A DNA stretch of 64,000 nucleotides, taken from the NCBI RefSeq assembly GCF_056746865.1, contig NZ_JBWKMP010000002.1. One strand, 5' to 3'. This document shows, piece after piece, positions 37,651-61,717 of the stretch (its first letter is position 1; the number at the start of each line of letters is the position of its first letter). The stretch is from a plasmid. A program made the position numbers and the translations under genes. The notes under the pieces were generated by a model. The model saw only the letters and a program-made list of their open reading frames with translations. It searched no databases and was not told the origin of the DNA.

Positions 37651-37851
37651 GTGATTAAACCTATAAAGCTGACTCTTATCGATAATTATAGTGATTTGCT
37701 TCTAACTCATGAAGTCCTTAAACGCAACATGGAAGAGTTAGAACACGGTAAACGTTTTGATCAATTTCCTGAAGGGCATGACCACTATGAAAAAACTGTG
37801 AAAGAAGCTGTAGCAATCGTAGAGGCACGTTTGGAGGTGTTTCGAAAATGA
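37651..37851 (+). CDS. Small hypothetical protein
   Basis: 66-aa ORF, stop overlapping the next gene start; no motif. Confidence 0.3.
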   Translation: MIKPIKLTLIDNYSDLLLTHEVLKRNMEELEHGKRFDQFPEGHDHYEKTVKEAVAIVEARLEVFRK

Positions 37852-38564
37852 AATCTCTTTTCTTTACTCTTGATGGTCATATGGTACCAGCCTCAGTGAA
37901 TGTATCACTTAACGGAGATGGAAATTATTATGCACCTATCGAAAGAGAATGTAACGAATGTGCGGGCACAGGCCACAAAGGGGCTGATTTATGTGAAAAG
38001 TGTCATGGGGTACAAACAGTTGGACCCATTATTGAAAAATTAGTGGCACTAGAGCCAATTACCTTTCTCGATAACATTCCGGAACTGCGTGTTAACCCAA
38101 CACTCGAAGCATGGAAATCCAGAAACCACGTCCTTATTGAGAAAGCAAAAAAGGCTAACACTAAGTTTTCTAATAGTATATTGGCGCAATTAGACAATAA
38201 CCGTTTCTTGACAGAACGCCAGCTGGATTGTTTCTTTACAACTTTTGATGTGATGTTGTCTGAAACTCCGGAAAATGAACAAGAAATTTTAAAACATAGC
38301 TACAATATCGGCCAGGTCATAAGCATTGAACTAACATTTACTGAAGTCAGGGCCGCGTACGCAAAAAGTAAAGGGAGTTATTTTTTTACATTTACTGGTA
38401 AAGTTAGAAATGACGGGATCGCTTTAACGGCCGATAAACAGGATCACATTTTATTGGGTGAACGTTATCATTTGACTGGAAAAGTCAGAAAATTCTATGA
38501 ATTTGATTCGAAAAATTATGCTGCAATAACAGTTTTTAAGTTAAATAAACTCCAAGACAGTTAA
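37848..38564 (+). CDS. Zinc-finger-like protein of unknown function
   Basis: 238-aa ORF with a DnaJ-type zinc-knuckle-like cluster CNECAGTGHKGADLCEKCHG. Confidence 0.45.
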   Translation: MKSLFFTLDGHMVPASVNVSLNGDGNYYAPIERECNECAGTGHKGADLCEKCHGVQTVGPIIEKLVALEPITFLDNIPELRVNPTLEAWKSRNHVLIEKAKKANTKFSNSILAQLDNNRFLTERQLDCFFTTFDVMLSETPENEQEILKHSYNIGQVISIELTFTEVRAAYAKSKGSYFFTFTGKVRNDGIALTADKQDHILLGERYHLTGKVRKFYEFDSKNYAAITVFKLNKLQDS

Positions 38565-38795
38565 ATGTTTTTGCTGCTTAAATATAGAGCCAAGACTTTA
38601 ACTGTCGTTAGGACTCACTCACGTAATATTGTTGCTTACGCAATGGGTTTTATCCCTCATAAAGATCTGCGAGTATAAATCTTTTACATTTAAATTCCCC
38701 TCTATCAGAACCTTTTCTATTGTAAAAAAATGATAATCTTATTAATTATAATTTTAATTTTTTGTATACCAATACCATACAGTTAAGGCTAAAAG

Positions 38796-58394: not shown

Positions 58395-60812
58395 ATGGGG
58401 AACCTGATCAGGAGACAACCCATGAAAATCAAACTAGCCCTGCTTATTGCATTTGCAGGTTTCAGCGCAGGAGCTTCCGCTGAAATCGCAGAATTCAGCT
58501 TTAAAGATACCCTGAACGTTAAAAAGACCGTATCGCCTGCATCCGTATGGATTAATCCGGTAACGAGCTTTGACGTTGCCGTTATTTCCGGTCTGGACCG
58601 TTATATTACGCTCAGTCTGCTGAAAAGTGACGGGAGCCTCATCTGGAGCACGAAAAGCAGCCTGGTTACCGTAGATGACCGTACCACATCTTCGACAGGC
58701 TTTGATTATTACGGCAAGACTCTGACCGTACCAGCGATGGGAGAAGATAGCTTCACCCTCAGAGAGGTGATTACCGACTTGCAAGGGAAGGAGGTCTCCC
58801 GGCAGGATTACCCGCTTGCAATTGACCGAACGCCTCCGGCAACGGGTACCATAAGTTATACGAGAAACGGGTGGAACTTTGGCAGCGAAGCGATCTTCAC
58901 TTCAGTACCAGCCGGTATGCAGTACGCCAGCGTCCAGGCACTGGTCTTTAATGGACTGAGTGATAAAGGTTCCGGGCTTGCTAATGCTGAATATTTCATA
59001 ACCGATGCCGCTGGAGTGGAGCGTAAAAAGCCAGCGGAAATTAATACAGTGGAAGGTAGCGTAACCGTTCAAGTCGCCGACGCAAGCAGCAATGCCCTGG
59101 CACCGGAAAACCGCTCTGAATATAAAGTGGGGATCTACCTTTATGACAAAGCGGGAAACAGGATCGAACTAAGCCGCCGAAGCGTAATTGATCGGGTTAA
59201 GCCTGACGATATCATCCAGGTGCAGGACGCCACTACCGGATCATGGGTCACTTATCAGTCTGGCATGACCGTCTTCCAGAACCCTATTTCCGTACGGGTA
59301 TTAAGGAAAAAAAGTGACTTTACTGCTGTTAACGGTTCCAAATATGGCTGGGCGGACTCGAATTTCCAGACGTCCGATAGCACTTATAATATTTATACTT
59401 TCAAATACATATATCCCAATGTGGGGGATACTTATCATGAATTCCAGACTCTGGCAGGAGGAGTAAGACGAATTCATCATAACTCCCTCAACTTCACTCC
59501 AGCCCCGGCGATGGAAATAGCCCCGAAGATAGTGGCTAAAGAGATGTACCGGAGTGATACCAGTGAGTGGTTAACTCAGGCCTCAATCAGCGTTAAAACC
59601 GCCACCATTAGCCGCATAAAGGTAACCGCTGAACCCCGACCATACGTGCAAAAGTTCAGAACGGTAAAAAATGCAGCCTGGTTCTGCACTATACCTATCG
59701 GACAAAGTTCATGCGAGATGACGGTTAACTTCAACTACACCAGTGACAAAGGATTTGAGTATCTGCACCTTTACTCGGGAAAAGATGGTGACAGCATATT
59801 CGATGCGCTTGCTGGTAATTTTACGGTTATCTGGGATAACAACCCACCGGTGGTTAATGTCGCTCAGGTAAACAAGGCCTCCAAGACAATCACTATGACG
59901 GCCACCGATAATGATCGCGTCAACGCCTGGAACATCAGCTACTGGGATACCAAAGTTTTCGAAGCCACCCTTAAAAATGCCCGGGGGGAACCTTTCACGC
60001 TGAAGCCTGTGACCGTCAGTGAAAGCGATTATAAAACCAAAAACGCCACCTTCTCATACGCTGGTCTACCGGACGGGGATTATACGGTGGTTAGCGTCTC
60101 TGCCACGGATCTTGTTGGAAACACCGGAACCAAAACGCTTAATGCACCGCTGAAAATTGACTCAACGCTTCCGGTTATCGCGTTCAGTTTTAATGGCGCA
60201 GACGCAGAAGGAAAACTGGTTAAAGGGCTTGAGAACCTTCGCATAAGCGTTACTGATGCCTCTGGGGATGCTTCCCTGACATCGCTTCAGCTCGCTGGTG
60301 GACCTAACTCTGAAAAGGTCACCCTGGCATTCACGCCGTTATCCAAGGATGTCTTTATTCCGGAATACCCCAGAATCTTCCCCAACACTGACGAATCGGG
60401 ACAGATGTATCATCTGGAGGCACTGGCTATTGACGAATCAGGTAACCGGACCACTAAAACGCTTAATTTTACCTACCAGCCTGCGAATCTGATTATGCTG
60501 GATAATCTCAAGACGCTGGCCACAGCCGTAGCACTGAAAGCAACGGACAACACGCCGCTGGCCATCATCCGAACCAGTGTGTTGCGGCGTCAGGACGGTT
60601 CTATCATTACCGGACAGTTAAACGGAACCCTGACTGTTCAGAAAAATGCCCAGTTCGGCGTTACGGTTGCCGGAGTTACGGTCCAGCCTGGTGAAACTAA
60701 ATCGCTGTCACTGGATCTTGGTAATGGTGAAGAGCGCACGTATCCCGTTACTCCCGCTGTAAGTGGTCAATCTGGCACGGCCACATTTGCTATAGAATTC
60801 CCTCAAACATAA
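58395..60812 (+). CDS. Secreted ~810-aa beta-rich protein, paralog C
   Basis: 805-aa ORF with a signal peptide (MKIKLALLIAFAGFSAGASA); shares the N-terminal ISGLDRY block and C-terminal NGTLTVQKNAQFGVTVAGV block with paralogs A and B. Confidence 0.8.
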   Translation: MGNLIRRQPMKIKLALLIAFAGFSAGASAEIAEFSFKDTLNVKKTVSPASVWINPVTSFDVAVISGLDRYITLSLLKSDGSLIWSTKSSLVTVDDRTTSSTGFDYYGKTLTVPAMGEDSFTLREVITDLQGKEVSRQDYPLAIDRTPPATGTISYTRNGWNFGSEAIFTSVPAGMQYASVQALVFNGLSDKGSGLANAEYFITDAAGVERKKPAEINTVEGSVTVQVADASSNALAPENRSEYKVGIYLYDKAGNRIELSRRSVIDRVKPDDIIQVQDATTGSWVTYQSGMTVFQNPISVRVLRKKSDFTAVNGSKYGWADSNFQTSDSTYNIYTFKYIYPNVGDTYHEFQTLAGGVRRIHHNSLNFTPAPAMEIAPKIVAKEMYRSDTSEWLTQASISVKTATISRIKVTAEPRPYVQKFRTVKNAAWFCTIPIGQSSCEMTVNFNYTSDKGFEYLHLYSGKDGDSIFDALAGNFTVIWDNNPPVVNVAQVNKASKTITMTATDNDRVNAWNISYWDTKVFEATLKNARGEPFTLKPVTVSESDYKTKNATFSYAGLPDGDYTVVSVSATDLVGNTGTKTLNAPLKIDSTLPVIAFSFNGADAEGKLVKGLENLRISVTDASGDASLTSLQLAGGPNSEKVTLAFTPLSKDVFIPEYPRIFPNTDESGQMYHLEALAIDESGNRTTKTLNFTYQPANLIMLDNLKTLATAVALKATDNTPLAIIRTSVLRRQDGSIITGQLNGTLTVQKNAQFGVTVAGVTVQPGETKSLSLDLGNGEERTYPVTPAVSGQSGTATFAIEFPQT

Positions 60813-61246
60813 GCTCTTCAGAAGGGTGCGGTAGTATGCCGTACCCTGTTACGCCATCCTCAATGTAATATGTAGAGTTGAGCATGACTTAATTATTACT
60901 TTCTCATTAAGTGGCTCTTAAATTGCAAACGGGAAAGTAATATTCCCGAGACGGGAAGGACGCCTTCCTTTTGGTTTTAATCTATGATGCTAAACCGTTT
61001 AATCACTCCGGAACAATGCCCGCGTTTAAATGGCTGGCACCAGTACATGATTTATCCATGAATGCTTTTTGATGCACTTTTACTTCAGAATGCTCTTAAT
61101 TTTTTAAACAAAATTATATTTGAATCCTTCGTGTATAAATTTGCAGACCCTCTCTCAATGTTTTTTTAAAATATTTACTCTCAGGTTATTAGCCAGTAGA
61201 TTCATTCTGTCATGATTACTCCAGAACTAACCGGAGGAATCACATT

Positions 61247-61717
61247 ATGACCAAATATTATGATCGCAGTGGAATTGAAATCTCCAGCGCAAAAATCCGC
61301 TGTGTTGATTCTGTAAAAGGTACTGCGGAATATACTTTTCGTATTCTTTGCGATAAATGCAATGGTCGGGGAGAGCGTAAGCATTTTTATAGAAGTCGCT
61401 GTATGGCTTGTAAAGCCACGGGTTACAGCCTCGAAACGACCCGCACTGCTTACACGCTGAATGCGCTGTACCGCATTAATGCTCAAGCTGCCCGCAAAGT
61501 GTCAGCATCCTTGCAAAACGAGCGTTTGAGGACTGAAAACGCCCACAACTCTGCGTTCAATGCATGGTGCAGATCTCATCAAAAAATGGTTGATGCAATC
61601 ACCCAGCAATCCAGCAGTAATAATTTTCTGGAAAGCCTTAAGTCTTCTTTAACCCACCAGCGTCAGTTAAGTGATAAGCAGCTGGCAGTCGCCGCCCGCA
61701 TTTTAGGGATTCATTAA
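61247..61717 (+). CDS. Zinc-finger-like small protein
   Basis: 156-aa ORF with the cluster CDKCNGRGERKHFYRSRCMACKATG, resembling the Cys cluster in 37848..38564. Confidence 0.45.
   Translation: MTKYYDRSGIEISSAKIRCVDSVKGTAEYTFRILCDKCNGRGERKHFYRSRCMACKATGYSLETTRTAYTLNALYRINAQAARKVSASLQNERLRTENAHNSAFNAWCRSHQKMVDAITQQSSSNNFLESLKSSLTHQRQLSDKQLAVAARILGIH

Follow-up and report, generated by a model that had tools for sequence, protein, structure and literature searches.

The DNA analysed here is a 64,000-nt stretch of a plasmid (NCBI RefSeq assembly GCF_056746865.1, contig NZ_JBWKMP010000002.1), hereafter the window, which is part of the backbone of an IncHI2 conjugative plasmid. It carries two genes, A and B (Table 1), whose products had been proposed, in a sequence-only reading of the window, to be small proteins sharing a DnaJ-like zinc knuckle of unknown role. 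Our analysis indicates that A and B are very probably distant paralogues within a single uncharacterised protein family that is widespread in phages and plasmids. Combined with a DNA-binding accessory role for this family, the overall reading is given a probability of about 0.55; the accessory role itself, which would concern the replication of the mobile element or its establishment, is tentatively put at slightly below even odds.

The two genes and their cysteine motifs

Both open reading frames (ORFs) exist as claimed, and the quoted peptides are present in their products, CNECAGTGHKGADLCEKCHG corresponding to residues 35-54 of A and CDKCNGRGERKHFYRSRCMACKATG to residues 35-59 of B. Good Shine-Dalgarno sequences precede both A and B, which are real genes. 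A six-frame regular-expression scan of the window gave three strict CxxCxGxG matches, one each in A and B and a third in antisense orientation outside the ORFs; the paired CxxCxGxG…CxxC motif was confined to A and B. The third strict match, CFQCYGCG at ~60542 on the minus strand, is antisense to a gene for an Ig-like protein, has no credible ORF and is a chance occurrence. According to residue composition, 0.025 strict motifs would be expected in the 98 ORFs of at least 90 amino acids (aa; 22,232 residues in total). Shuffling within ORFs yielded a mean of 0.034 motifs; 0.15% of the shuffled sets contained two or more, and none of 2000 contained the paired motif.

The pairing of CxxC-x-G-x-G motifs asserted by the sequence-only reading was thus found, but both proteins have a degenerate second motif (CEKCHGVQ in A, CMACKATG in B), so that each carries one full CxxCxGxG plus one CxxC(x)G. 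The four cysteines are kept in at least 90% of the orthologues of A and of B. Residues C35, C38, G40, G42, C49 and G54 do not vary among A orthologues, at least 90% of which also have C52, and all four cysteines are invariant in an alignment of 50 sequences of the wider family described below. Since there are only two motifs per protein, we infer that each knuckle forms at most one zinc site, a predicted Cys4 site.

Direct comparison of the two proteins by BLASTP gave an E-value of 0.007, with 19% identity over 112 aa, and the alignment contained a second shared motif, KFSNSILAQLDNNRFLTERQL in A and NFLESLKSSLTHQRQLSDKQL in B. Profiles were then built from orthologues, separately for A and B, and their profile-profile alignment (hhalign) reached an E-value of 6.8e-6 with 84.6% probability over 92 columns, spanning residues 34-147 of B and 34-127 of A. 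Both proteins also matched phrog_4046, a family without assigned function, in the same part of its profile (B, E-value 3.9e-12, profile positions 45-155; A, E-value 1e-3, positions 50-163).

A family shared by plasmids and phages

Exhaustive searching with HMMER, in which the B profile was run over 1.84 billion representative proteins, gave 110 relatives with an E-value of at most 1e-3, mostly 250-290 aa in length, in which the B-like part is N-terminal and followed by ~100 additional residues. Fifty of the 110 relatives were aligned, and no A-type sequence was used to collect the relatives or to build this alignment (A4). Conserved in it are an N-terminal 'F.R.G', the invariant C..C.G.G … C..C.G, 'YTAE.LAKLNA..AKR' at the start of a long helix, 'FL.DL……G.LS..Q..A' and, toward the C-terminus, 'VG.VG.R….TV … D..GN..VY.G … G….ATVK.H..Y.G.KQT…RPK'.

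Against this profile of 286 positions, the B family aligned by hhalign with 99.8% probability (E-value 4.3e-30), residues 2-154 falling onto positions 8-164, and the A family aligned with 98.6% probability (E-value 8.6e-16) over 221 columns, residues 3-228 falling onto positions 8-256. When the 636 stop-to-stop ORFs of the window were searched with the A4 hidden Markov model (HMM), only B (E-value 9.4e-31, HMM positions 1-160) and A (E-value 8.7e-14) were matched, the next-best ORF having an E-value of 0.21. The resemblance extends beyond the cysteines: after removal of the knuckle, the helical region of A still matched the family with 95.7% probability (E-value 1e-8) and that of B with 99.0% probability (E-value 3.1e-18, 91 columns). 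The proposed shared module is therefore corroborated by the profile-profile, phrog_4046 and wider-family matches, and it is this similarity outside the cysteines that identifies A and B as distant paralogues.

A and B resemble PHROG 4046 and the wider family in how their domains are ordered, in all four cysteines and in the F..SL…L(S/T)..Q motif. They differ from it in several respects. A is highly divergent, with 13-23% identity to wider-family members, a shorter loop between the motifs (6 residues versus ~11-12) and a shorter long helix, while B is without the C-terminal oligonucleotide/oligosaccharide-binding (OB) domain. Furthermore, A and B are plasmid-borne, whereas the PHROG 4046 members are phage-borne. 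The family is spread over hosts among the Proteobacteria and Actinobacteria and is also found in cyanophages; its phages include jumbo, T4-like, PB1-like and actinobacterial phages. Its domains are also found in other combinations. The OB domain stands behind unrelated N-termini in two relatives of 386-445 aa (P0194 and P0196), which possess a different N-terminus of ~300 aa containing C.HC. The N-terminal module is fused to DUF6011 in P0224 and also occurs alone in some relatives, and in P0059 the helical G.LS.KQ motif is duplicated and a C-terminal Cys cluster is present.

A and B are already present in databases as hypothetical proteins, and the family is catalogued solely as a function-unknown PHROG, without a Pfam model. 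Scans of A, B, their neighbours and 50 family members against Pfam, NCBIfam and PADLOC revealed no family covering A or B, with a weak tRNA_anti_2 OB match in one of the 50 family members; in PADLOC-DB, A, B, their neighbours and the family member P0036 had no match with an E-value of 0.01 or below. Sequence searches of the PDB with profiles of A, B, the wider family and the A C-terminus gave nothing significant. One hit, to the type II-D Cas9d structure 9lgi_A (PMC12339737; E-value 0.0096), lay in a lysine/glutamate-rich helical stretch and was set aside as most likely due to chance. A literature search found no paper on A, B or the PHROG 4046 family.

Short B-like proteins ~30% identical to B, encoded on IncHI1B/IncFIB plasmids of Klebsiella and Raoultella, have been named 'YuiA family protein' by the Prokaryotic Genome Annotation Pipeline (PGAP). 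The name does not stand for any characterised family; the copy of NCBIfam that was searched contained no model matching 'YuiA', and no plasmid literature on YuiA was found. By tblastn, 1,836 plasmid records were found to contain a B-like gene and 1,394 an A-like one. Among Klebsiella records the numbers were 584 and 88, a difference of ~500, suggesting that many plasmids probably carry a B-like gene without an A-like one.

The family member P0036 was modelled with AlphaFold2 (AF2) from the 50-sequence alignment, giving a mean predicted local distance difference test (pLDDT) score of 95.4 and a predicted template modelling (pTM) score of 0.74. In this model, β-strands 21-38 and 66-76 flank the cysteine loop and lead into a 43-residue helix (77-119); three further helices occupy residues 121-176, the last of which is the L(S/T)..Q helix, and a five-strand β-barrel is formed by residues 187-265. 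As modelled, the family consists of a zinc knuckle within an N-terminal β unit, a helical module and, usually, a C-terminal OB fold. A Foldseek search of the PDB with the P0036 model returned no match with an E-value of 1e-3 or below, and the top matches, all of them weak, were to DNA-binding OB-fold proteins: PrgE of pCF10 in first place, together with single-stranded DNA-binding proteins (SSBs), RPA, PriB and OrfM of ICESt3. In the BFVD fold search, 44 viral proteins were matched with an E-value of at most 1e-3, nearly all of them uncharacterised. Two of the 44 bear the label 'SsDNA binding protein', and the homologue in BcepSauron is labelled 'Replication Factor (A)'; these labels are computational annotations.

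The AF2 model of A, built from 10 sequences, is of low confidence (pLDDT 64.6) and shows the same order of elements as P0036. The helical motif of A reads F107..S110 I111..Q114 L115....F120 L121 T122.R124 Q125 L126. Its C-terminal strands were placed at residues 157-172, 177-186, 189-195, 206-219 and 222-234 (pLDDT ~50-75), and in the full-length hhalign alignment this domain is collinear with the OB domain of the family. From this collinearity and the predicted secondary structure, the C-terminal domain of A is probably OB-like, and A would be a divergent full-length member with all three parts. B carries the corresponding motif, F127 L128.S130 L131 K132..L135.....L141 S142.K144 Q145 L146, and its sequence terminates with the L(S/T)..Q helix, which corresponds to position 164 of the 286-position profile; there is no OB domain. 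Because its orthologues (profile E-values from 1e-75 to about 1e-12) keep the length of 152-169 aa, and only 49 nt separate the B stop codon from the next start codon, B can be regarded, on sequence grounds, as a stable short form consisting of the N-terminal module only and not as a recent truncation. The description of two small proteins sharing a knuckle therefore understated the relationship: a shared knuckle there is, but A comprises three parts including the probable OB-like domain, and B corresponds to just the N-terminal module. The proteins are generally basic, the family median isoelectric point (pI) being 9.07 and that of B 9.8, with a net charge of about +13.

Gene neighbourhoods on the plasmid backbone and in phages

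Table 1. Positions of A, B, their parts and neighbouring genes in the window
Feature	Coordinates	Strand	Description
A	37848..38564	+	238 aa, WP_000838218.1; PGAP 'zinc finger-like domain-containing protein'
A zinc knuckle (predicted)	37950..38009	+	residues 35-54, CNECAGTG-x6-CEKCHG
A helical module	38097..38258	+	residues 84-137; AF2 helices 84-92, 94-103, 106-116, 123-137
A C-terminal β domain	38295..38549	+	residues 150-234, five strands, pI 9.4; probably OB-like
B	61247..61717	+	156 aa, WP_000170638.1; PGAP 'hypothetical protein'
B zinc knuckle (predicted)	61349..61423	+	residues 35-59, CDKCNGRG-x9-CMACKATG
B helical region	61430..61708	+	residues 62-154, ends in the conserved motif
ParB-like protein	36578..37633	+	351 aa; HTH_ParB 26.9 bits versus threshold 22.6
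66-aa ORF	37651..37851	+	stop overlaps the A start as ATGA
Dam methylase	39662..40495	-	
Second possible ParB-like gene	40844..42007		387 aa
DUF4942 gene	42255..43946		in-frame stops in the window
Ig-like protein	45733..48189	+	~800 aa
repHI2 initiator gene	49297..50385		appears frameshifted
Ig-like protein	52381..54801	-	~800 aa
Ig-like protein	58395..60812	+	~800 aa
HigB-like toxin gene	61767..62063	+	98 aa, RelE/ParE family; Pfam HigB-like_toxin E-value 5.4e-18
HigB-like gene and 393-aa ORF	61767..63253		pair; second ORF begins 9 nt after the first gene

A is the third gene of an operon composed of the gene for a 351-aa ParB-like protein, a 66-aa ORF and A itself, divergent from a Rep3-type replication gene. 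The ParB-like protein matched phrog_1033, 'ParB-like partition protein', with an E-value of 1.9e-25, and the overlap between the 66-aa ORF and A suggests translational coupling. The order of these three genes is kept in relatives of ~50% identity, including one in Photorhabdus. In an unrelated plasmid lineage of 113 kb, a full-length family member directly follows a RepA_C initiator gene and precedes GIY-YIG and KfrA genes. Among phages and prophages, the member of an actinobacterial prophage is located inside a primase/PolA module, and that of a Rhizobium phage is 2 kb from the DNA polymerase gene. The metagenomic contigs of P0036 and P0037 were too short for gene context.

B is followed by the HigB-like toxin gene, for which no recognisable HigA is present. 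The 393-aa ORF behind the toxin gene has no Pfam family and is annotated 'flavin reductase' by PGAP. The pair of toxin gene and 391-394-aa ORF is kept in P0013 and P0027, and the 393-aa protein could be an unusual antitoxin.

The wider setting is that of a conserved backbone. Region 36500-40500 has 95-100% identity to 1,115 PLSDB plasmids, and region 60800-63300 is matched by 1,099. The hosts are mostly Escherichia, Salmonella and Enterobacter according to PLSDB, and the types assigned to matching records, among them pD90-1 and pAMSH1, are IncHI2A, MOBH and MPF_F. Along the window, the Tra2 transfer genes (trhN to trhA/traL) come first, then the Rep3/RepB-type replication gene and then a region of hypothetical genes, which contains orphan DNA methyltransferases, three giant Ig-like proteins, repHI2 and the HigB-like toxin gene. 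Scans for promoters and terminators gave counts no higher than expected from shuffled sequence.

The window is 99.96-99.98% identical to pAMSH1 apart from a difference of ~214 bp, these ~214 bp of pAMSH1 being absent from the window at ~45354. The DUF4942 gene has in-frame stops at codons 364, 368, 373 and 389 in the window and is intact in pD90-1 and pAMSH1 (562-563 aa); it looks like a short frameshifted stretch and may represent either a pseudogene or a sequencing error. The repHI2 initiator gene also appears frameshifted, since reading in frame 0 ends at codon 191 and continues from there in frame +1, while the pAMSH1 copy is intact (362 aa). The second possible ParB-like gene, an orthologue of which has a faint HTH_ParB match, forms with the Dam methylase and DUF4942 genes a cluster typical of establishment and anti-restriction regions. 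The three Ig-like proteins are paralogous, lie around repHI2 and adjoin B, and their orthologues contain DUF4165 and Big_3 domains.

Possible function and comparison with known systems

The OB fold and basic charge make nucleic-acid binding by the family plausible, as far as the structural model goes. From these features and the gene context we infer DNA binding and an accessory role, for which the following mechanism may be proposed. The two CxxCxGxG-type motifs would together bind one zinc ion through four cysteines and stabilise the N-terminal hairpin, which is followed by a long basic helix and a small helical bundle with the F..SL…G.L(S/T)..Q motif. The OB fold and the basic surfaces or helices would bind nucleic acid, most likely single-stranded DNA arising from replication or entry of the plasmid or phage, and the N-terminal and helical module, stabilised by zinc, would serve for self-association or to recruit a partner. 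A, co-transcribed with the ParB-like protein, may act together with it at or near the Rep3-type replicon, and B, very basic and without an OB fold, would act through the N-terminal module alone.

Several observations weigh against this proposal. Many phage members are found in arrays of small accessory or unknown genes and not in replication modules. OB folds are also able to bind proteins or sugars, and the N-terminal 70 residues of A are acidic (pI 5.1). The OB fold of A depends on the low-confidence model mentioned above, and the C-terminal 90 residues of A, searched in isolation, had no significant counterpart in the family OB domain, Pfam or the PDB. In addition, the source names of the homologues are all 'hypothetical' apart from the two computational labels, and there is no characterised homologue among them.

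The main alternative, which we consider unlikely, is that the family members are anti-defence or host-takeover factors, that is, early proteins which neutralise host immunity by binding defence proteins or by sequestering nucleic-acid signals. The zinc-knuckle and helical module as the binder of a target would explain how B works without an OB fold. Phage members lie, as mentioned, in arrays of small accessory or early genes. The plasmid region is also rich in orphan methyltransferases (Dam, DUF4942 and an N6_N4_Mtase with Mrr_N), ParB-like genes and toxin-antitoxin genes. Domain shuffling is common in arms-race proteins, and the family displays it. Two phage members, in Caulobacter phage CcrBL9 (4992-5828) and Erythrobacter phage vB_EliS-L02 (3875-4822), lie 3-5 kb from nicotinamide adenine dinucleotide (NAD) salvage genes, namely those for a NadM-type adenylyltransferase/Nudix protein and a phosphoribosyltransferase; the proximity may reflect an anti-defence island in these two cases. 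However, hosts so distant from one another are more readily reconciled with a general DNA transaction than with one particular host target, as is the rep-adjacent position in two plasmid lineages. The PADLOC searches were negative, although PADLOC holds defence and not anti-defence proteins.

The neighbouring toxin gene raises the improbable alternative that B serves as antitoxin, regulator or chaperone in a three-gene HigB module with the 393-aa protein. The adjacency noted by the sequence-only reading is real for B, the toxin gene lacks a HigA, and the order B, HigB and 391-394-aa ORF is kept in P0013 and P0027 (B-profile E-values 1.3e-75 and 2.0e-33). In more distant B-like relatives, however, two to three genes (1.1-1.9 kb) intervene between the B-like gene and HigB and the 393-aa gene is missing, and pHN111RT-1, an IncHI1B/IncFIB plasmid of Klebsiella, has no annotated HigB at a distance of up to 6 kb from its B-like gene. 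The Klebsiella excess of B-like over A-like records also speaks against a HigB module, as do the occurrence of the family elsewhere without toxin-antitoxin context and the lack of any helix-turn-helix or antitoxin-domain match for B in Pfam and NCBIfam. Because the adjacency is lost in distant relatives, it is better explained as backbone synteny than as a functional unit; HigB is an unlikely partner of B, and B as an antitoxin or chaperone of HigB was rejected.

Still less probable is a DnaJ-like co-chaperone or holdase, in which the knuckle would bind unfolded clients as the DnaJ zinc-finger region does. The sub-threshold matches to DnaJ_CXXCXGXG, DnaJ_bact and the DNAJA3 zinc-finger structure 2ctt (E-values of about 1e-2 to 1e-5) do cover the β-strand before the first motif, and the family profile matched 2ctt with an E-value of 0.0098, including that strand. 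However, the Pfam DnaJ_CXXCXGXG model (PF00684) gave A a score of 20.1 and B one of 20.8 bits versus a threshold of 32.7, over about half of its 65 positions, and NCBIfam DnaJ_bact scored 14-25 bits versus a cut-off of 377. No PF00226 J domain and no DnaJ_C match was found in A or B at an E-value of 1 or below, the two motifs would form one zinc centre at most, and the remainder of the protein is a helical module plus OB fold. The epithet 'DnaJ-like' thus holds for the type of motif and not for family membership, and the suggested chaperone-like role found no support. The sharing of a common zinc-knuckle motif by unrelated proteins through chance or convergence, to which the weak direct signal between A and B might point (BLASTP as above; post-zinc region E-value 0.003, probability 10%), is effectively refuted, since both proteins fall onto the same columns of the same independent family profile, the A helical module matches the family without the knuckle, and no other ORF of the window does.

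Under the preferred reading, a DNA-binding accessory family, two anonymous ORFs become a testable hypothesis, that of a zinc-dependent OB-fold DNA-handling protein together with a natural OB-less form, for which the P0036 model provides a confident structural template. The result is a classification and a lead, and no function has been discovered. In Escherichia, Salmonella and Enterobacter, IncHI2 plasmids are major vehicles of antibiotic resistance; both genes are present on more than 1,000 sequenced plasmids, and much of the IncHI2 backbone is annotated only as 'hypothetical'. If the role in replication or establishment is true, the family would mark a conserved, possibly targetable step common to plasmids and phages; if the anti-defence role is true, it would represent a new protein class.

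Among known systems, the A/B knuckle appears analogous to half of a DnaJ cysteine-rich domain or to anti-TRAP and would be a structural zinc knuckle. In DnaJ, four motifs build two zinc centres, while anti-TRAP is a small protein with a single zinc site built from two DnaJ-like CxxCxGxG motifs. A and B share with DnaJ/Hsp40 (PF00684; 1exk, 2ctt) the CxxCxGxG type, a similar spacing between motifs and the preceding β-strand, but they have two motifs and one predicted site instead of four motifs and two sites, and they are without the J domain, G/F region and C-terminal domains of DnaJ. Membership of the DnaJ cysteine-rich domain was rejected on the number of motifs, the sub-threshold scores and the missing J domain, that of TIGR02642 on scores far below its curated cut-off, and that of anti-TRAP (RtpA; PF15777, NF058604) on scores of 19.8 bits for A and 17.3 bits for B versus a cut-off of 65. 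Anti-TRAP, of ~53 aa, consists of the knuckle alone and binds TRAP, whereas the A/B knuckle is embedded in the architecture of β unit, helical module and OB fold.

The closest characterised analogues are PrgE of pCF10 and OrfL/OrfM of ICESt3, which have at most the fold of one domain in common with the family. PrgE is reported to be a plasmid accessory DNA-handling protein (PDB 8s4t; PMC11137577) and OrfL/OrfM to be accessory DNA-handling proteins of an integrative and conjugative element (PDB 9hnj; PMC12614216). PrgE and OrfM resemble the family in possessing an OB fold and being encoded by conjugative elements, and PrgE was the best Foldseek match in the PDB, but the PrgE and OrfM matches were non-significant (E-values 9.6e-3 and 0.12) and without sequence similarity. 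PrgE and OrfL/OrfM are also without the zinc-knuckle and helical N-terminal module. Compared with these proteins, the family to which A and B belong would be new as an OB-fold DNA-handling accessory protein with a previously undescribed zinc-knuckle and helical N-terminal module.

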